DNA of 64,000 bases from an uncultured Bacilli bacterium (GTDB lineage: Bacteria; Bacillota_I; Bacilli_A; RF39; UBA660), in assembly GCA_934140575.1 (NCBI GenBank), contig CAKPBJ010000004.1:33274-97273 (forward strand), in the 5' to 3' direction. Position 1 is the stretch's first letter. Every line of letters begins with the position of its first letter. A program made the position numbers and the translations under genes. The notes under the pieces were generated by a model, which was given only the letters and a program-made list of their open reading frames with translations, was not told the origin of the DNA and did not search any database. Below, one piece after another: positions 37,324 through 49,160 of this stretch.

Positions 37324-38157
37324 TTAACTATTGAGTCTTTCTTTAAAAGTACATGATTGGCATAATTTTTCACAAGGTTTTCTATCTTGAAATGATTTTT
37401 TTAATGATATGTATTTTTCTGAATTAATTATTTCTTCTAGGCTTTCTTTGAATATATTACCAAGATTAACTACTCCATTTGAATCAAGACAACAAGGAAC
37501 TACTGTTCCATCTACTAATATACCTATTTGAGTTTTTAAGGCATAGCAATAACCATTACTTTTATGAGTTGTTACTTCTGGCCAAGAAAACTCATTATCT
37601 TTATCCACATATATTGTGGATTTTATTTTTATGTTATTAGATGTATAAATTTTATCAACAGTTTCTTGTGGTAAATTATAATATTTTTTTATTTTATTAA
37701 CAATTTCTTGTGACTTACTATCTAATTGATTATTTTTTAAAGTCCATAAACGATATATTATAATTTTATCTTTTAATAATTCCACTTTTTTAAATATTTC
37801 TTCACAGTAATTATCAAGACTATTTTCTGAATGAAGAGAGAAATTTATTTTGCGTAGTGAGTTACATTCACTTAACTCTTTTGCTACTTTACTAAATAAT
37901 GTACCATTTGTTGTAAGGTTTACTTTTAAATTATACTTATCTGCAAGGCGTAAGAACTCTATAATATTTGGATGAAGTAATGGTTCTCCTTTAATATGAA
38001 GATATATATAGTCGGTGTAGTCTTTTATTTTTATTAAAATATTTTCAAACTCTTCTGTTGTCATAAATCTTCTTTTTCTTTTTACTTCACTGCAAAAACT
38101 GCATTTTAGATTACAATTATTGGTAATTTCTATATAAATTTTTTTGTATTTTTTCAT
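37324..38157 (-). CDS. radical SAM/SPASM-domain protein
   Basis: The N-terminal CNLKCSFC motif is a CxxxCxxC cluster, and GEPLL is present. A C-terminal Cys cluster (CCLD...CEKLCQSC) is typical of SPASM/twitch domains. Its ATG overlaps the uvrB TGA as ATGA. Confidence 0.7.
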
Positions 38158-40106: not shown

Positions 40107-40242
40107 TTTTTTCCTCCCTCCTTTATAACTTTCTGTGACTTTTTTTGAACTTTTAAAAGTATAACTGTCAGCCAACTATTAGTCCCTAAATTTGTCCTCA
40201 TTGCTTATAATTTAATGGTTAAATTGATACTTTTTTCTTTGG

Positions 40243-40263
40243 GACGAATGAAAGTCACAAATT
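40243..40263 (+). repeat. 21-nt direct repeat, copy 1 (gggacgaatgaaagtcacaaa)
   Basis: An exact 21-mer recurs at 47537-47557 in the same orientation, with extended similarity of about 30 nt. The two copies bracket the accessory segment. Confidence 0.8.
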
Positions 40264-40433
40264 TTATTTTCTGGACTAAATAACATTAAACAACATTAGA
40301 TGGCGTTTTCGCTATATTATTTTATCATTTTTCCCTTGAAAAAACAAGGTAATCGCAAAAATACCCTATTCTTATTATCATCTATTTTTTAATTAAAATA
40401 CTGTTAATTCATTTAAAATATTTTCATCAATAG

Positions 40434-41135
40434 AAATATCAGATTCGTCCCCAATTTGTATTTCTAATTATTGGTACCGCAATTTATGCAGCAGCATATA
40501 ATTTATTTTTCTTTAAGAATAGCATAGTATTTGGTGGTGCAAGTGGTATATCAATAATTACCCAAAAGATAATAGATCCTTCTGTTATGATACTTATCTT
40601 AAACGTATTTTTCCTGATTTTAAGTTTGTTTTTATTAGGAAAAAGAAAAAACCTAGATTCGGTTGTAGGTTCTGTTTTATTTCCACTATTTGTTAAATTT
40701 ACGGCAAATATAGGAGATTATATTCATATTTCAAACGATAATTTACTTTTAATATCAATAGTAGGCGGTGTATGCGTAGGTACTGCATCTGATATTATAT
40801 TTAAAAGTTGATTTACAACTGGTGGAACTGATATATCAAACCAAGTAGTAGCAAGATATTTTAAAGTTTCAATCGGAACTTCTATGCTAATGACTGATGG
40901 ACTTTCAGCGTTTAATGTATCGGTTGGACAAATAGTTACTAAAGATACTGTAATAGGAAAATCAGGAAATACCGGTAATTCAACAGGACCACACTTACAT
41001 TTAGGATTAGCAAATGGTAGGTGATATGCTGACTATTATTCATATTATGGAAATAATTGTTTTATAGGACATTCATTTAACCCAAGAAATATAATAGGAT
41101 TTCCGGTAAAAGGACAGAACTATTATAACAGATAA
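40434..41135 (+). pseudogene. chimeric pseudogene: YitT-family N-terminal part joined to an M23-peptidase C-terminal fragment
   Basis: The translation QIRPQFVFLIIGTAIYAAAYNLF...FTTGGTDI matches residues about 20-175 of the YitT paralogue at 55275-56153. It then continues in frame into VGQIVTKDTVIGKSGNTGNSTGPHLHLGLANG, which is M23-like (compare GYMGNTGYSFGCHLHLE at 51576-52733). In-frame stops lie at 40809 and 41022, and no start codon is present. Confidence 0.7.
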
Positions 41136-41319
41136 AAAAATCTAAAAAAGTCAAGTTTTTAACTTTGATTTTTTTTAATTTACGTCAAGAAAAATATTGA
41201 TTTTTGTCGAATTTTGTGGTATTTTTTTATAGTAGGATAGCCGATTCTAAGTGGTTTAGTGGTTATCTAAAAGAAGCATTAAATGTCTTCAATATTTCAT
41301 ACAAAAGGAGGCGAATAAC

Positions 41320-41847
41320 GTGAATCAAAAGGAAAAGAAAGGGTTAATAGCTTTAGTAATACTACTTGTAGTAGCTATTGGTGTTGGTTTTGCAGCATCA
41401 CAAGACGCAGTAAATATTACTGGTACTGCAAGCGCTGTTGCAACGGATTTTGATATTCAGTTTAAAACTGATGCTGAAATAACAATACAAAAAAGTGCTG
41501 GTGCTGCAATAGCTGCTTCAGGTGCTTATGGTGCTAATGGAAATGCTGATGCTACAATGACTGTTTCTGGATTAAAGAACGCTGGTGATTATGCAGAAGC
41601 AACTTATACTATCATAAACAAAAGTACTGATGTAAACGCTGACATTACAGCAAAAGTATCATCTGCTATTGAAGATGCAGATCATTATAATGTTGAAGTA
41701 ACAGGTGGTGCAAATGGTGTTGCTCCAGATGCAACAACTACTGTAACAGTTAAAGTTACACTAATCAAAGCTTTTGCTGATGATACAGCTGCAAAGACAG
41801 CAAAATCATTCAAAATTACAGCAACTGGTGTAGCAGCTGAAAAATAA
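41320..41847 (+). CDS. small secreted protein with SipW-cognate-type signal peptide (TasA/BsaA-like matrix-fibre subunit candidate)
   Basis: The 175-aa ORF uses a GTG start after AAAGGAGG. It has a K-rich N-region, an h-region, then FAASQDAVNITGTASAV. The mature part is Ala/Thr/Gly/Val-rich and acidic. Confidence 0.55.
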   Translation: MNQKEKKGLIALVILLVVAIGVGFAASQDAVNITGTASAVATDFDIQFKTDAEITIQKSAGAAIAASGAYGANGNADATMTVSGLKNAGDYAEATYTIINKSTDVNADITAKVSSAIEDADHYNVEVTGGANGVAPDATTTVTVKVTLIKAFADDTAAKTAKSFKITATGVAAEK

Positions 41848-41882
41848 TATTTGAAAGAAATTAATTAAGGAGGAGGTATATC

Positions 41883-43007
41883 GTGGCTAAAAGAAGAGAT
41901 TCGGCTTATATATACTTTGCATTTGTAATAGTATTTCTTCTCCTTAATCTTCTTGTGCTAAATATTAGTGCAAAATTACAATTGTTACCCATATTTATAA
42001 TTATATTTTTGTTAAGTTTTATCTTCTTCAAATTTAGAAAAGACAAAACTTATGCAAGAATTCGGGTAACTATTACAATGTTACTTATAGGAATTGTACA
42101 AATAGTTTTATATCTTTTAACCGGCTTTTTAGAGGGTTTTTCTAAGAATGCTATTAGTATGAGTTTTAACCGTTTTTTAACCGTTATTTTACCTATTATA
42201 TTAATATTAGTAGTTATTGAATTATTAAGATATATGATATCAGTAAAATTCGAAAAAAACAATTTAATAAGAATACTTAGTATTACTATGTTTGTACTAT
42301 TTGATGTGACTTTATTTGGCTCAAATGTGATTTTTAATAGTTTGGATTCTGTATTAGAATTTTTAGGAATAACGTTTTTTCCTAGTCTGGTAAGTAATAT
42401 TGTGTTTGATGATATGGTAGTTAAATATGGATATAAACCAATACTTGTTTATAGATTATTAACAACGTTATGTTATTACATGTTGCCTATCGTTCCTAAT
42501 ATGTATATTTTATTTAGGGCAATTGCAAGAATAGTTATTCCTCTTATTTTTTACTTCATATTATCTTATATGTATGATAGGGTAACGTTTCAAGAAGCAT
42601 TAAAGGTAAAGCCTAATATAAGTATTTCATCAATAATTATACTTATATTAGTAATTATTATGGCAGGTTTAATATCTTGCGAATTTAGATATGGTATTTT
42701 AACAATTGGAAGTGGTTCTATGACTGGAACTTTAAACAAAGGAGATATTGCTTTTGTCGAAAAATTTAATGGTCAGGAGTTAGAAATAGGTGACATTATT
42801 ATATTTAAACGAGGCAAAAGAAATATAGTCCATAGAATCACACAAGTTGGCATATTCAATGATGAATACGTTTATATAACAAAAGGAGATAAAAATAAAG
42901 TAGAAGATAATGGGTATGTTTATCAAAAGGATATTCAAGGTATAGTTCACTATAGGATAAAATATATTGGATACCCATCTATTTGGATAAGAAATTTATT
43001 TAATTAA
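41883..43007 (+). CDS. SipW-type (archaeal/ER-type) signal peptidase I fused to an N-terminal 8-TM domain
   Basis: The C-terminal roughly 110 aa read GSGSMTGTLNKGDIAFV...IVHRITQV...ITKGDKN, with the Ser and His of the SipW/Sec11-type catalytic dyad. The N-terminal roughly 250 aa contain 8 predicted TM helices and no His. The start is GTG after GGAGGAGG. Confidence 0.6.
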   Translation: MAKRRDSAYIYFAFVIVFLLLNLLVLNISAKLQLLPIFIIIFLLSFIFFKFRKDKTYARIRVTITMLLIGIVQIVLYLLTGFLEGFSKNAISMSFNRFLTVILPIILILVVIELLRYMISVKFEKNNLIRILSITMFVLFDVTLFGSNVIFNSLDSVLEFLGITFFPSLVSNIVFDDMVVKYGYKPILVYRLLTTLCYYMLPIVPNMYILFRAIARIVIPLIFYFILSYMYDRVTFQEALKVKPNISISSIIILILVIIMAGLISCEFRYGILTIGSGSMTGTLNKGDIAFVEKFNGQELEIGDIIIFKRGKRNIVHRITQVGIFNDEYVYITKGDKNKVEDNGYVYQKDIQGIVHYRIKYIGYPSIWIRNLFN

Positions 43008-43038: not shown

Positions 43039-44133
43039 ATGGACAGAAAACAAATAAACAAAGTTATGCAAGCAACAAAAAAAAGAACTAGAACTATTGC
43101 TATTTTGATATTTGTTGTAATAGCTGTTTTACTTGCAGCTATAAGCATAATTTTTATCTCTATAAATAGTGAGAAGAATTACTACATTCATTATGATGAA
43201 AAAAGTGATTTAGATTATAAGGTATATTTAAAAGAAAATGATTATTTTGGAAGATACCTAGGTAAAAACAATCAATATATTGCAAGCCTAATTGATTATG
43301 TGGAGGCAGATTTTAATTATAAATTATCAATCGATGAGAAAATTGATTATTCATATTATTATTACGTAGAAGCAACTGTTCAGGTTTTAGATACTAATGA
43401 TAAACCATTATATAAAAAGGTTGATAAAGTAGTTGAAAAACAATATTTCAAGGATCCTATTAATCATGCTTTTGAAATAGATCAAACTGTTAATTTGGAT
43501 TATAATTACTATAATAATATAGTAAATACGTTTATTAAGAGATATAACTTATCAAATGTTAAAAGTAATGTCACTTTAAGTATGTATGTTGGAATTGAAG
43601 GGGAATGTAAAAAATTTGATTCTTCTTTAGCAGACAACGCAGTTATTAGTATGAACGTCCCATTAACAACAAACACTGTTAATATTGACATGAATTATAA
43701 ATTAAATAATTCTACAAACAAGTTATTAAAATGTAGAGAAGAATCAGTATTAAATAATAAATTACTTATTTTAGGCATAGTTTTATTATTCATTGATTTA
43801 GGTGTTTTCGTAGGAACTATTAGATATTCAAAAAGAACTAGAAGCACTTTAACTATATATAATAAAAAACTAAAAAGTATTTTTAATAATTATGGTCAAT
43901 ATATATCTAAGATTAAAACGGAGTTTAAATATGAAAAATTTCAAATTGTATTAGTTGAAGAGTTTGAGGATTTATTTGAGGTAAGAAATTCAAGTAATTC
44001 ACCTATATTATTTTGTCAGGATGAAACAAAAACAAGAAGTGCCTTTGTTGTTCCAACAAATTCTGGACTAGTGTACATCTATTATTATTCAATTAGTAAT
44101 GTGATTGAGCAAGGATGCAAACATGAAAGTTAA
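43039..44133 (+). CDS. bitopic (2-TM) membrane protein of unknown function
   Basis: The 364-aa ORF has a TM helix near residues 20-42 and a second near 243-262, with a Tyr/Asp-rich extracytoplasmic domain between them. It overlaps the next gene. Confidence 0.5.
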   Translation: MDRKQINKVMQATKKRTRTIAILIFVVIAVLLAAISIIFISINSEKNYYIHYDEKSDLDYKVYLKENDYFGRYLGKNNQYIASLIDYVEADFNYKLSIDEKIDYSYYYYVEATVQVLDTNDKPLYKKVDKVVEKQYFKDPINHAFEIDQTVNLDYNYYNNIVNTFIKRYNLSNVKSNVTLSMYVGIEGECKKFDSSLADNAVISMNVPLTTNTVNIDMNYKLNNSTNKLLKCREESVLNNKLLILGIVLLFIDLGVFVGTIRYSKRTRSTLTIYNKKLKSIFNNYGQYISKIKTEFKYEKFQIVLVEEFEDLFEVRNSSNSPILFCQDETKTRSAFVVPTNSGLVYIYYYSISNVIEQGCKHES

Positions 44134-46492
44134 AGATAAATTTTTAAAGGCACGAAAAAAATATAGTGATAGTAAGAAGTGGGCAATTTTTCTTATATTA
44201 ACTATATTTTTATTGAATATAGGTTACGCAGCTTCAAAGGCCTCGCTTGAAATAAATGGTAGTGCGAGTGCTGTAAAAGTACCAGAATTATTTATCGAAG
44301 AAGTAAAAATAATTGACATAAACGGATGTTCACAAAATGAACTTCCCATAACAAATGGAACTACTTTGGATACTAATATAAATTTTCCTTCTAATGAATA
44401 TTCATATATAACATATCAGGTAACTATTGCAAATGGTACGGATTCTATTCAAAAGTATACAGGAGAAACTTATAATAGCGTTACATCAACTAAAAATGTT
44501 ATTAATTATGAACTTACGGATGGTCTTTCTTCCGGTGAGTATTTGTTTCCTGGGAATAGTGCAACATATACGTTAACTTATAAGTATAGAAACGGTGCAA
44601 GTACAGGTAATTATGATTTGAAAATGAACTTTAATTTTGAAGATTCCGGTAAGTTTTCTGCACTTTCATATACAAATAGTGTTGATTTAACTAATAAAAC
44701 TAAGGAAGCCGTAAAAATTAAGGTAATGAATAATGGAGATTCTGCAATCAATTATAATCTCAACATAGATAATACTAAATTTGAACTAACTGATATTAAT
44801 GGAAATTTTTTAAGTTCTCTTTCTATAAAAGCTCATACTGAAGAAGAAATAACTGTTTATATATCCAAAAAGCCAGATGTTACATATTACAAAACAGAAT
44901 ATGAAACAAACTTTAGTTTAAGTTATAATGATATTACACTAGATTTTGGAAAAATAAAAATAAAAACAAATACAACAAGTGGCTATGTTGATACAACACC
45001 TCCTCAAATAGGGGCAGTATCAGTTGATATCGTATATGAAGTCGGATCAATTGATGTTACTTGGTCTAATTTAGATAATAAAAATGAGGCTCCAGTAACT
45101 AATTATGTTGTTTTACTTTATAATGATTCGGGAACTCTTGTTACAACCGGAAACACTGGTAATTCAGATACCACCTATAGATTTAAAAATCAAGCACAAG
45201 GAAATTATTATGCTGTAGTTTATGGTATAGACGAAGCTGAAAATTCAGGAGAAACTTATGTTTCAGTTTCTTCAACATCAACAACCAATGCAAGAAAATC
45301 TGTTACAAAAGAAATGAGATGGAAAAGAACAATAACATATAATGTTACAAATATTAATGTTACAGGACCTAATGAGGCTAATTTAGGTGAGTCATTTACA
45401 GCTACATTAAAACCGAATAATAACTATAAATATAATTCTGTTCCTTCAGTTACGTCAGACGGTAAAACTTTTAAAGATTATTCAACGGATGCTAATAAAT
45501 ATACTATAACAATAAATCAGGTGACAGGTGATTTAGTTATTAATGCAACAGCAGCAAGAAATGCTTGCCTTGCTAAAGGAACAAAAATATTACTTGCAAA
45601 TGGCAAATATAAGAACATAGAAAATATTAGATATGATGATTTACTAATGGTATATAATCATGAAAATGGTACATTTACTCCTGAATATCCTATTTGGATT
45701 GAAAAAGGTAATTTGTCTAGTAATTATCAAGTAATAACATTTAGTGATGGTACTTCTTTAACAACGATTGATAAACATTCTTTATTTAGTGTTGATGATA
45801 ATAGATATGTTGATGTAACAGATGAAAATACATTTCACGTTGGAACTAACATATTAAAAACAGTAAAATCTAAGAGAGGTTACAAGCTCAAAAGTGTTTC
45901 TGTAACTAATATAGAAAAGGTAAATAAATCGATTGATTATTATGACGTTGTATCAACAAGATACTATGATATAATTGCAAACGATGTATTAACATCAGAT
46001 GGAAGAACAGGACTAGTTAATTTTTATGAATTTAAGGAAAATGCTGTTTGGTCTTCAAGAAGACAAGAAGTTATAAAGAATAATACATTCTTAAACTATG
46101 AAGATTATAAATTTATTCCGTATTACTTGTTCCATGGCTTAAGAGCACAAGATGGAGCGGTTATAATTAAGTATAATTATATGACTAAAGAAGAATTTGA
46201 ATCTGTGTTTACCGATTTATTATTAAATAAAGAAATGGTATTAGATCCAATAACTAAAAACAAAAAAAGATATTGGATGGTAACAACATCAGATGATAAA
46301 GTAACAAGTAAAAATAAAGGAAAATATTTACTGAAAGAAAATAGTTATTATACGTTAGAAAAACCTAAGAAAACGAAAGATTTCAAAGGTTGGTATAATA
46401 CTGGCGATGGGAAAATTTATAAACCTGGTAGTAAGGTAAAGATATATCATGGTACACATTTTGTTGCATCATATAAAAAAATTAGCTCATAA
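44123..46492 (+). CDS. large secreted multidomain protein (SipW-cognate-type signal, FN3-like, Hint/intein-like domain, C-terminal Flg_new-like repeat)
   Basis: The start is taken at ATG 44123, with AAGGA 6 nt upstream. The signal ends NIGYAASKASLEINGSASAV, which parallels gene 41320. An FN3-like segment is present (DVTWSNL...YRFKNQAQGNYYAVVYGIDEAENSG). The Hint N-terminus reads CLAKGTKILLANGKYKNIENIRYDDLL and the Hint C-terminal block reads YYDIIANDVLTSDG. The C-terminus, FKGWYNTGDGKIYKPGSKVKIYHGTHFVASYK, resembles a Listeria-Bacteroides repeat. Confidence 0.6.
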   Translation: MKVKDKFLKARKKYSDSKKWAIFLILTIFLLNIGYAASKASLEINGSASAVKVPELFIEEVKIIDINGCSQNELPITNGTTLDTNINFPSNEYSYITYQVTIANGTDSIQKYTGETYNSVTSTKNVINYELTDGLSSGEYLFPGNSATYTLTYKYRNGASTGNYDLKMNFNFEDSGKFSALSYTNSVDLTNKTKEAVKIKVMNNGDSAINYNLNIDNTKFELTDINGNFLSSLSIKAHTEEEITVYISKKPDVTYYKTEYETNFSLSYNDITLDFGKIKIKTNTTSGYVDTTPPQIGAVSVDIVYEVGSIDVTWSNLDNKNEAPVTNYVVLLYNDSGTLVTTGNTGNSDTTYRFKNQAQGNYYAVVYGIDEAENSGETYVSVSSTSTTNARKSVTKEMRWKRTITYNVTNINVTGPNEANLGESFTATLKPNNNYKYNSVPSVTSDGKTFKDYSTDANKYTITINQVTGDLVINATAARNACLAKGTKILLANGKYKNIENIRYDDLLMVYNHENGTFTPEYPIWIEKGNLSSNYQVITFSDGTSLTTIDKHSLFSVDDNRYVDVTDENTFHVGTNILKTVKSKRGYKLKSVSVTNIEKVNKSIDYYDVVSTRYYDIIANDVLTSDGRTGLVNFYEFKENAVWSSRRQEVIKNNTFLNYEDYKFIPYYLFHGLRAQDGAVIIKYNYMTKEEFESVFTDLLLNKEMVLDPITKNKKRYWMVTTSDDKVTSKNKGKYLLKENSYYTLEKPKKTKDFKGWYNTGDGKIYKPGSKVKIYHGTHFVASYKKISS

Positions 46493-46531: not shown

Positions 46532-46885
46532 TTATTCTTTAATTATATATTTTATTACTTCTTCTATGCTTTTCTTTGTTCCATTAGTATTGTAATATAT
46601 TAAAACAGTATCAATAGCAAGTTGTAGCATATTAAAATATATTGTAATCTCACGCTCTTTAGCAGTGTCTTTATATTCATTAATATATTTTTCAAATATC
46701 TTTTTATCTTCATTTGAAAGTGGTTTTATTTCAAAATTATATTTCTTTTCTTTTTTTGCAAATTCAGGAATTATTATTTCTTCTTTTGTATCTTCTATTA
46801 CATTTTTTTGTTCTTCTTTTTGTTTTTTAATATCACTTATTTTGACTTTAAGGTGGTCATTTGCAGAATTCTCTTTTACTTTCAT
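46532..46885 (-). CDS. hypothetical K/E-rich protein with predicted C-terminal ribbon-helix-helix-like segment (ParG/omega-like?)
   Basis: The 117-aa ORF has a C-terminus (REITIYFNMLQLAIDTVLIYYNTNGTKKSIEEVIKYIIKE) with a beta-alpha-alpha pattern. It lies immediately downstream of the ParA fragment, in the same frame, separated by one stop codon. Confidence 0.35.
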   Translation of the reverse strand: MKVKENSANDHLKVKISDIKKQKEEQKNVIEDTKEEIIIPEFAKKEKKYNFEIKPLSNEDKKIFEKYINEYKDTAKEREITIYFNMLQLAIDTVLIYYNTNGTKKSIEEVIKYIIKE

Positions 46886-46900
46886 TTCTGATACTATCTG

Positions 46901-47206
46901 TTATACTCTCTCCATTGCTATCTCTTGAATATTCATTAAGTGCTCATTAGTAGTGTTGTGTATAGAGATTTCTTTCTCTCTTTCAAATACTTTAACCTCA
47001 TCATTGCGTGTTTGTCCTCTACTTAAATCTTCTTCATTATACCAACCTGCATAAGTTGTTAGGTTACTTTGTGGATCAACATCTACAATTAAAACTTTTT
47101 TACATTGCTTTGCTAATGCTACTCCAAGATTAAAAGTTGTTGTTGTTTTACCAACTCCCTCTTTTTGGTTTGTAATAGCAATTACCTTACACCTACTTTC
47201 TTGCAT
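46901..47206 (-). pseudogene. ParA/Soj-family partition ATPase, N-terminal fragment (truncated)
   Basis: The 101-aa ORF has the deviant Walker A ([23 protein letters not shown]...[10 protein letters not shown]) but ends after about 100 aa, whereas full ParA proteins are about 200-260 aa. Confidence 0.6.
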
Positions 47207-48014: not shown

Positions 48015-49160
48015 TTAATAATTTTTATTTTCCTTTACCATTTTTTTGGGTTTTTCTTCATTTTCATCTTGCAAATTCTTTGGTTCAAAAGGTTTTAATT
48101 TACTAAAAAAATCATCTTCTATCAAAAAGGAATTTTTAGGATTAAATATTGGTTCATGGCTTGCGAAATCTTTACTTGATAAATGTAATCCTTGAACAAA
48201 AGAAGTTCCTATATCTCCATTAAAACAAATACTTCTTAAATGATTAGAAAAACCATTTGGATAATCATAGTGATTTGATGGTTCACTAGATATTACTCCA
48301 TTAGTTGTACATTTATCTATCTTATCAATAAACTCATAGGATACGTTATTTGTTTTCTCATGCAAAAGATCATTACTTTTTTTCATGCAAGAACTATAAA
48401 GATAAAGTCCAGCGGCTTGAATAGGGTTAAATTCTAATACATCAATATAACTTTGATTTTCAATTTGATATTCAAATAAATCTAAAACATAATAATCAGG
48501 AAATACTCCTTTAAGTTTTTCAACAATACTTTCTGCAAATTCTAATACTTCTGGCTCTATACTATGTAAAATAGTAGTTGTATTTCTAGAAATATTATAG
48601 ATTTCATTGTTAACTACAAAACATCGATATTCTTTTACACCATAATTATCCTCTTCAATATTAACTTTTTTACTAATAATAAAGTCATCTTCTAAATGAT
48701 GCATTAAAGTTTTGTGTAATGCGCATTCTTTATCTAAAAGTAACTTTACTGGAATAATAGCACTAAAGTTTTTAGTTTTAGTTTTAAAGAATATTTCTTT
48801 TCCATATACTTCTTCTATTTCTTTTACTATATCAGAGTTAATCAAATCTTTTCCTTTAAATATTTTACATTTTCTTTCTGTAGAGTAATAATTTGGCCAA
48901 CTTTTTACTATCTCAACATCATTATTTGACATGATAGGAATACCACCTTGTTTAATAATTTCATCATTCATATCATGTATTTGAGTTTCACCAGTTCTTG
49001 GAAATATTAGTTTAGACTTAATATCTATTATATTACCATCAAAATCAGTAAAAATTTTTAATTTATTATCATAAAGTATTCCATTTTGATTCATCTTAGA
49101 AATTGCCATTTCCCTTTTAGAATAATCCCATGGTAAAAGTTTATCAAAACAATATAACAT
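48015..49160 (-). CDS. ATP-grasp-fold domain protein (putative ligase)
   Basis: The 381-aa ORF has a central region (YRCFVVNNEIY ... YVLDLFEYQIENQSYIDVLEFNP) that resembles ATP-grasp nucleotide-binding motifs. Confidence 0.45.
   Translation of the reverse strand: MLYCFDKLLPWDYSKREMAISKMNQNGILYDNKLKIFTDFDGNIIDIKSKLIFPRTGETQIHDMNDEIIKQGGIPIMSNNDVEIVKSWPNYYSTERKCKIFKGKDLINSDIVKEIEEVYGKEIFFKTKTKNFSAIIPVKLLLDKECALHKTLMHHLEDDFIISKKVNIEEDNYGVKEYRCFVVNNEIYNISRNTTTILHSIEPEVLEFAESIVEKLKGVFPDYYVLDLFEYQIENQSYIDVLEFNPIQAAGLYLYSSCMKKSNDLLHEKTNNVSYEFIDKIDKCTTNGVISSEPSNHYDYPNGFSNHLRSICFNGDIGTSFVQGLHLSSKDFASHEPIFNPKNSFLIEDDFFSKLKPFEPKNLQDENEEKPKKMVKENKNY

Follow-up and report, generated by a model that had tools for sequence, protein, structure and literature searches.

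The stretch of DNA studied here (the window) comprises 64,000 nucleotides (nt) of contig CAKPBJ010000004.1 from an uncultured Bacilli bacterium, with a G+C content of 28%. At positions 41883–43007 of its forward strand it carries a single intact open reading frame (ORF) of 374 codons with a GTG start, which joins a membrane domain of eight transmembrane (TM) helices to a type I signal peptidase (SPase I). This fusion is genuine and defines a conserved, large family in Bacilli and Clostridia of the gut. Its gene stands second in a close series of four genes of one orientation, which encode a 175-amino-acid (aa) protein, the fusion protein, a DUF5305 protein and a 795-aa protein. On sequence grounds, the C-terminal third of the fusion protein is a Ser-His-Asp signal peptidase I of the endoplasmic reticulum (ER)/archaeal type (SipW/Sec11-like). 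We propose that the protein acts as the dedicated signal-peptidase holoenzyme of a TasA/AbpX-type fibre operon, with the membrane domain as a fused, non-catalytic partner of pseudo-CPBP type. We hold this statement, taken as a whole, to be evenly balanced between right and wrong, and the assignment of the peptidase and of the operon merits higher confidence than the whole. The coordinates of the features are given in Table 1.

Table 1. Features of the fusion gene and its operon, numbered from the first nucleotide of the window
Feature	Position	Strand	Description
Presumed cognate substrate and fibre subunit, 175 aa	41320..41847	+	small secreted immunoglobulin (Ig)-like subunit; signal peptide residues 1–25 (nt 41320–41394)
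Shine-Dalgarno-like run AAGGAGGAGG	41867..41876	+	6 nt 5′ of the GTG start, read from the sequence
Fusion gene	41883..43007	+	374 aa plus stop; putative pseudo-CPBP membrane domain joined to ER/archaeal-type signal peptidase I
N-terminal domain, residues 1–245	41883..42617	+	predicted CPBP/Rce1-like fold of eight TM helices; free of histidine
Ninth TM helix, residues 246–268	42618..42686	+	the peptidase's own anchor; hydropathy peak 246–264 (score 3.0), AlphaFold2 helix 248–265, conserved L-I-S265-C266-x-F268 end
Extracytoplasmic catalytic domain (predicted location), residues 269–374	42687..43004	+	S279 (42717–42719), H317 (42831–42833), G335-D336-x-N338, D342
DUF5305 protein, 364 aa, putative accessory subunit of the peptidase	43039..44133	+	Pfam DUF5305, 51.4 bits (cutoff 29)
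Presumed second substrate, tip or minor component, 795 aa	44105..46492	+	secreted; same signal-peptide type (..LLNIGYAAS KASLEINGSASAV); Ig-like regions

The fusion gene and its peptidase domain

The initial annotation had read the gene as a SipW/Sec11-type peptidase fused to an eight-TM domain in one protein of 374 aa, and had allowed that it might turn out to be two ORFs. The gene is one uninterrupted ORF, its product scores above the cutoff of TIGR02228 and the lengths of its homologues are conserved, so the fusion stands. The GTG start is supported by the homologues of the fusion protein, since their alignments begin at residue 1.

A set of 5.8 billion proteins contained 402 homologues of the fusion protein. 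The best 120 of these 402 have 372–380 aa, with the exception of two (281 and 348 aa), at identities down to 36%. A survey of other genomes for the same architecture, which had been suggested earlier, was also carried out. The profile of the N-terminal domain alone retrieved 1139 representatives of clusters formed at 50% identity; nearly all of these have about 370–385 aa, and 715 were matched with E ≤ 1e-10. Among the 150 representatives listed, the complete proteins have 364–391 aa and carry the N-terminal domain at residues 1 to about 245; the shorter entries of the family are mostly fragments. Public databases label the fusion homologues merely as 'signal peptidase I'. The N-terminal domain has no Pfam or NCBIfam model, and for this reason thousands of fusion proteins bear that label only.

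Genomic loci were collected by full-length alignment to the fusion protein, and 81 loci were compared. Metagenome-assembled genomes are the origin of 80 genomic loci, most of them from gut or faecal samples, as judged by record title and isolation source, and the taxon labels are Bacilli or 'Tenericutes', Clostridia, Oscillospiraceae and Eubacteriales. The fusion gene of the window is 96–98% identical to the copies from a human-gut 'Bacilli bacterium' and from 'uncultured Tenericutes UMGS957'.

A natural two-gene version of the protein was considered and found no convincing support, as the few copies in separate ORFs that were inspected look like frameshift or decay. In locus L090 (1229–2139), 11 nt separate a TAG stop from an ORF in a different frame, which has no ribosome-binding site and starts MVIFMTLLAMLISCQF..GSGSMTG. 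The copy in L003 (6001–7126) looks frameshifted, that of L075 is fragmented, and L091 (267–1668) holds the gene of the small subunit and a gene for the N-terminal domain only, with the peptidase missing. As a separate observation, loci L065 (2009–4284 and 7505–9145) and L074 (877–2729 and 5896–8176) each carry two tandem pairs of fusion gene and DUF5305 gene. This module is therefore sometimes duplicated within one genome.

In the C-terminal third of the protein, TIGR02228 (sigpep_I_arch) matches residues 248–366 with 77.3 bits (cutoff 51.85), and Pfam Peptidase_S26 scores 28.4 (cutoff 22.9). The motifs quoted in the initial annotation are present as S279-M-T-G, H317-R-I-T-Q-V and K334-G-D-K-N. 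Among 101 diverse members of the family, S279 (GSGSM), H317 (VHR), G335 and D342 are invariant, and at least 98% of 101–102 diverse members share D336 and N338. The profile of the 101 members matches human SEC11C (E 7e-23) and SEC11A (E 5e-22) with the catalytic columns (Ser, His, GDxN..D) aligned. In addition, Foldseek matched the catalytic domain to the eukaryotic signal peptidase complex (SPC; PDB 7P2P, 7P2Q) with an E value of 4e-5. The Bacillus SipW equivalog model NF046067 gave 52.7 bits, below its cutoff of 190; because this score lies far under the cutoff, the enzyme is SipW-like in type but no SipW orthologue.

The catalytic domain would lie outside the membrane, as suggested by the positive-inside rule, with eight helices before the anchor and basic cytoplasmic loops. 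A family-specific motif at the C-terminus, Y-I-G-Y-P-S-I-W, is found on a short helix (residues 365–373).

The operon and its presumed substrates

The 175-aa subunit has a predicted cleavage site, GFA↓ASQD (the arrow marks the cleavage), which is followed by the alternating strand AVNITGTASAV. The small subunits share an unusually conserved N-terminus, composed of M-K-K-K-R, a hydrophobic stretch and l-G-(V/I)-G-[YF]-A↓A-x-x-D-x-L-x-I-x-G. Thirty small subunits were combined in a profile, which was compared with the signal peptide and donor strand of AbpX from Pyrodictium abyssi, whose sequence was taken from the supplement of bioRxiv 10.64898/2026.01.04.697558. The hhalign probability was 90% (E 1.6e-6), and the alignment sets GFA↓ASQD on TYA↓QWSE. 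AbpX is a subunit of the TasA superfamily that polymerises by donor-strand complementation, and its relatives keep an acidic residue at mature position 4 (bioRxiv 10.64898/2026.01.04.697558). The subunit of the window has this acidic residue as D4.

The DUF5305 protein has TM helices at residues 22–40 and 243–261, which flank an extracellular domain; its tail is cytoplasmic. Its gene lies immediately 3′ of the fusion gene in 77 of the 81 loci. Of the remaining loci, two break off at the fusion gene, one (L065) shows a gap of about 280 nt and one (L075) is in fragments. In about 55–59 of the 81 loci, a small homologous subunit gene is found 5′ of the fusion gene, and one locus (L001) has the same four-gene block in a different chromosomal neighbourhood.

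The 795-aa protein has one N-terminal hydrophobic segment (residues 26–44). Its homologues occur in close relatives of the window only; elsewhere, different large proteins with the same signal motif are encoded 3′ of the DUF5305 gene. Neither the 175-aa nor the 795-aa protein has a C-terminal hydrophobic segment or sorting tag. A scan for promoters and terminators told little in this AT-rich DNA: 40 promoter-like sites were counted where 49 were expected. The C-terminal half of the 795-aa protein also holds a module resembling Hint domains and bacterial inteins, which begins at Cys488 (NA↓CLAKGTKILLANG), from about position 45566 of the forward strand. The Pfam matches to Hint (E 5.8e-4) and Hom_end_hint (E 6e-5) are below cutoff, and the module suggests a possible self-cleavage or ligation of a fibre-associated protein.

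Operons with comparable features are known from other organisms. At AbpX loci of Bacillota and archaea, a dedicated SPase I 'possessing ten TM helices', of TIGR02228 type, is found beside AbpX-like donor-strand subunits and DUF5305 (bioRxiv 10.64898/2026.01.04.697558). The same preprint regards DUF5305 as a putative accessory subunit of SPase I, which is sometimes fused to SPase I and is likened to subunits of the eukaryotic SPC. The locus of the window is similar, with an AbpX-like subunit, a DUF5305 protein and a peptidase in which eight TM helices, the anchor and the short C-terminal helix make up ten helices. Compared by description, it is probably of the same class as the ten-TM SPase I of the preprint (A0A1M6GRN4, A0A2R7Y7S8, WP_338249487.1).

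The operon also resembles SipW/TasA/TapA of B. subtilis, where an ER-type Ser-His peptidase lies in the operon of its fibre subunits. The signal peptide of TasA ends in G-x-aromatic-A↓A-x-x-D and is followed by the donor strand. Unlike the SipW operon, that of the window has no TapA and carries a DUF5305 gene instead, and SipW itself, of about 190 aa, has no eight-TM domain.

In the haloarchaeal Tat-fimbriae (Tat, twin-arginine translocation), the DUF5305 protein is TafG, for which a role in aiding the dedicated peptidase TafD has been proposed; deletion of TafD blocks the processing of TafA (PMC11821415, PMC12337348). The window locus shares with this system the pairing of a dedicated signal peptidase for fibre subunits with a DUF5305 protein. 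In place of an N-terminal eight-TM domain, TafD carries an additional extracellular domain at its C-terminus; its TM helices number four, and its subunits use the Tat pathway. The eukaryotic SPC (SEC11, SPC22/23, SPC25, SPC12; 7P2P, 7P2Q) is the closest relative of the catalytic domain in sequence, and its enzyme also works within a bundle of accessory TM helices. On the other hand, the accessory helices would here come from the fused CPBP-like domain and DUF5305 and not from homologues of SPC12 or SPC25; the accessory parts of the two systems showed no homology.

The initial annotation had supposed that the membrane domain acts together with the cleavage of the cognate substrates. From the conserved fusion and the operon, this is very probable.

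The N-terminal membrane domain and its possible role

The first 250 residues or so had been described as eight predicted TM helices without histidine, and both points were confirmed. The hydropathy of the region has seven clear peaks, AlphaFold predicted eight helices (residues 2–26, 31–48, 59–84, 95–122, 127–145, 154–182, 185–200 and 209–231), and the only histidines of the fusion protein are H317 and H356. The positive-inside rule would place the N-terminus in the cytoplasm, together with the loops 49–58, 123–126 and 232–245. The lack of histidine had also been taken as an argument against a CAAX/Abi protease. This argument does not hold for the fold, as a missing histidine does not exclude a fold of the CAAX/Abi type.

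Judged from the predicted model, the domain is likely to have a CPBP/Rce1-like fold. The model has the eight TM helices of the Rce1-type fold; in the structural comparison, the next alpha-helical membrane protein, a G-protein-coupled receptor fusion, scores 5.8. Foldseek is in weak agreement, with Rce1 as the first membrane match (E 1.0, probability 0.51). SpdC and Rce1 are proteins of the type II CAAX protease (CPBP) family. APH-1 reportedly derives from the same superfamily (Pei et al. 2011). TMEM147 is APH-1-like. The identity of the domain to SpdC (6U0O) and Rce1 (4CAD) is 9–16%, with no significant sequence or profile similarity.

By sequence criteria, the domain is a family of its own and no member of PF02517. 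The initial annotation had left room for an ordinary, known family; the Pfam and NCBIfam scans matched no named one. These scans (15 N-terminal domains and 101 full-length members, E ≤ 10) gave scattered chance hits only; the models of CPBP, exosortase, rhomboid and PrsW were not among them. Against PDB sequences, the profile of the domain gave chance matches to Kv channels only, and the full-length profile gave signal peptidases only.

The conserved residues of the domain were counted in 129 sequences. E113 (codon 42219–42221) is kept in all 129, R116 in 127, D or E at position 141 in 125, R or K at position 191 in 121 and N172 in 117. G81, P104, P202, P205 and P220 are also strongly conserved. 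The family motifs are [S/T/I]112-E113-x-x-R116 on TM4 and F137-x-x-x-D/E141 on TM5, and position 112, the site expected of a canonical catalytic first Glu, is S, T or I. Motif 1 of CPBP proteins (E-E-x-x-x-R) is absent from the family, which has a single Glu and a shorter spacing. Motifs 2 (F-x-x-x-H) and 3 (H-x-x-x-N/D) are absent from the histidine-free residues 1–245. Both canonical CPBP histidines are missing throughout the family, and the catalytic E140, H173, H227 and N231 of Rce1 are not conserved in it.

To place these residues on CPBP proteins, we used an alignment of 116 CPBP sequences, composed of eight annotated plasmid proteins, 107 of 120 PF02517 proteins and a reconstructed M. 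maripaludis Rce1 (residues 23–257, with E140, E141, R145, H173, H227 and N231 at their published numbers). A forced global hhalign alignment, which is not significant, sets E113 on E141 of Rce1, R116 on R145 and R191 on H227. The only local match, not significant either, sets N172...N/D176 on HxxxN. The mapping of motif 3 is ambiguous between N172...N/D176 and R191. The motif mapping stays tentative because the hhalign probability is about 1% or less and the two alignments disagree on motif 3.

A parallel is found in SpbR of S. aureus, a degenerate CAAX-like, non-proteolytic protein. Its 1:1 complex with the signal peptidase SpsB has been validated by cross-linking, and SpbR controls which substrates are cut, inhibiting the cleavage of LtaS and others (PMC12260438). 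In the predicted, cross-link-supported interface, the TM helix of SpsB lies on TM5 and TM7 of SpbR (PMC12260438). The degenerate motifs of SpbR are HELYMR, FIYLD and QIVAI, and mutation of H118, E119 or R123 has no functional effect (PMC12260438). When the motifs are compared as that paper lists them, SpbR and the fusion family share their losses, with the first Glu gone, the second Glu and the Arg kept and the His of motif 2 replaced by Asp. In both cases, a degenerate CAAX-like polytopic part is coupled to a type I signal peptidase, and the fusion family keeps E-x-x-R and F-x-x-x-D.

As far as motifs can tell, the N-terminal domain belongs with the non-catalytic CPBP partners of degenerate motif, and its pattern of losses is like the HELYMR and FIYLD of SpbR. 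The membrane-anchored enzyme with which it is associated is the peptidase, to which it is covalently joined in hundreds of clusters. The pairs SpdC (LyrA)–SagB (PDB 6U0O) and LnsB–LnsA have pseudo-CPBP partners to which the domain can also be likened. The S. aureus system differs in that it consists of two proteins, with a Ser-Lys enzyme and an inhibitory effect, while the family described here has one polypeptide, a Ser-His enzyme and a constant DUF5305 partner. SpsB is a P-type peptidase.

In the mechanism that we propose, the Ser-His-Asp domain would cleave each precursor behind the sequence G-x-G-[YF]-A, and the donor strand at the N-terminus would thereby become available for fibre assembly. 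The pseudo-CPBP domain and the two-TM DUF5305 protein would supply the surrounding TM helices of a multi-helix holoenzyme; complex formation with DUF5305 and the formation of fibres are here inferred. The pseudo-CPBP domain would be a permanently attached partner and no second protease, holding the anchor helix of the peptidase in the manner of SpbR–SpsB, SpdC–SagB and LnsB–LnsA. The complex may then dock or gate the conserved signal peptides, which consist of a basic n-region, an h-region and G-x-G-[YF]-A↓A-x-x-D, and may limit cleavage or set its position; substrate selectivity would be the result. Docking or gating of the signal-peptide helix is the likelier function, because a permanently fused inhibitor makes no sense. 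By analogy with the known pairs, the non-catalytic docking role can be advanced tentatively, at slightly less than an even balance.

Several points weigh against this proposal. The assignment to CPBP depends on one predicted model and one structural aligner, PF02517 has no match in the 15 N-terminal domains and 101 full-length members even at E ≤ 10, and the profile searches of PDB sequences found no CPBP chain. The hhalign comparisons, local and global, against 8 and then 116 CPBP sequences gave probabilities of about 1% or less (0.2–1%). The predicted local distance difference test score (pLDDT) is low in the linker and anchor (residues 242–268), so the model is unreliable on the packing of the two domains. 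SpbR inhibits a Ser-Lys peptidase and the enzyme here is of the Ser-His type; for this reason, and since permanent inhibition is senseless in a fusion, the analogy is limited to the partnership and does not extend to the direction in which the partner acts. Finally, the invariance of E113 and the presence of R116, D/E141, N172 and R/K191 each in 117–127 of 129 sequences exceed the need of a pure scaffold and are compatible with a non-canonical active or binding site.

The doubts on the fold lead to an alternative in which the resemblance to CPBP is a generic similarity of eight-helix bundles, arising from a medium-confidence model. The domain would then be an unrelated new membrane family, such as an export or assembly platform or a fibre anchor. 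With the structural match to Rce1 on one side and the lack of profile similarity on the other, we consider this unlikely.

The conservation of polar residues bears on a second alternative, in which a non-canonical site (E113, D/E141, N172, R/K191) would make the domain an active intramembrane protease, acting as a signal-peptide peptidase that breaks down the highly conserved signal peptide after cleavage, or making a second cut in the substrate. The CPBP fold family consists of intramembrane glutamic proteases with catalytic residues on TM4, TM5 and TM7 (E140, H173, H227 and N231 in Rce1). In the fusion family, TM4 carries an invariant Glu, TM5 an acidic residue, TM6 an Asn and TM7 an Arg, and their strict conservation down to 22–30% identity suggests a functional site. 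In addition, coupling the removal of the signal peptide to its clearance would be sensible for an abundantly exported fibre subunit. However, both canonical histidines are missing family-wide, and the forced alignment sets E113 on the second Glu, E141, and not on the catalytic E140, whose place is taken by S, T or I. The same Glu and Arg are present in the non-proteolytic SpbR, where their mutation is tolerated, and all the characterised histidine-less CPBP proteins cited in PMC12260438 are non-catalytic. An active protease is for these reasons quite improbable.

Lastly, the initial annotation had envisaged an assembly factor like TapA or a module that processes or anchors proteins in the manner of a sortase. 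TapA is a secreted protein without an eight-TM domain. For a sortase-like role, the substrates would have to carry a sorting signal at the C-terminus, but the cognate proteins each have one N-terminal hydrophobic segment and no C-terminal anchor or tag; the domain also lacks the conserved Cys or His that sortases and exosortases need. Both versions are highly improbable, even though the fusion and the operon context put the domain on or near the same substrates and the CPBP-family proteins include C-terminal sorting proteases such as myxosortase (PMC11980579).

If the pseudo-CPBP reading is extended, the fusion may be seen as a Rosetta stone, showing CPBP pseudoproteases to be general and ancient partners of type I signal peptidases, with the Rce1-like cavity as a built-in receptor of the signal-peptide helix. 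Together with DUF5305, the protein would then be a prokaryotic counterpart of the eukaryotic SPC, selective for one fibre family. This joint extension is doubtful. In a more radical version, the signal peptide would be cleared at an intramembrane catalytic site of a new kind, formed without histidine by E113, D/E141, N172 and R191.

The preprint on AbpX (bioRxiv 10.64898/2026.01.04.697558) gives the ten-TM peptidase one descriptive sentence and no fold for its TM domain, with zero occurrences of CAAX and Rce1. Our literature search returned no link of CAAX/CPBP proteins to TasA-type peptidases and no further mention of a ten-TM SPase I. The architecture has already been mentioned once, in that 2026 preprint; the assignment to the Rce1/SpdC fold and the parallel to SpbR–SpsB did not turn up in the literature that could be searched and appear to be new.

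Dedicated peptidases such as SipW, TafD and the SPase of AbpX loci decide when biofilm or pilus subunits are released for donor-strand polymerisation. The fusion with its constant DUF5305 partner is a compact genetic handle on how such peptidases recognise their own substrates. It also lends independent support to the binding and control of signal peptidases by CAAX-like pseudoproteases, as in SpbR–SpsB, and offers a natural fusion as a test case. The family is abundant in uncultured Bacilli and Clostridia of the human and animal gut, where its fibres may matter for colonisation.

Other genes in the neighbourhood of the operon

On the 5′ side, a radical SAM protein with a SPASM domain is encoded at 37324–38157 of the reverse strand (Radical_SAM 58.5 bits, SPASM 59.2 bits). 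The start of its gene overlaps the stop of uvrB, and the gene sits between uvrB and that of a 481-aa protein with a weak C-terminal match to glycosyltransferase group 1; no obvious substrate peptide gene was seen nearby. A region of about 1.1 kb without long ORFs (40200–41300) lies just before the operon and holds a 74-aa fragment of a YitT-family membrane protein (40587–40811, forward strand; profile positions 49–116 of 205), which is probably a gene remnant.

Directly 3′ of the cassette, a 101-aa ORF (46901–47206, reverse strand) matches only the N-terminal P-loop part of ParA/MinD-type ATPases (AAA_31 72.9 bits, positions 1–55 of 177) and looks like a truncated partition gene. A small unassigned ORF (46532–46885) adjoins it. 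Further along, among the small unassigned ORFs 3′ of the cassette, a 381-aa protein is encoded at 48015–49160 of the reverse strand, with an ATP-grasp domain of the R2K clade (R2K_2 29.8 bits, cutoff 26.2).

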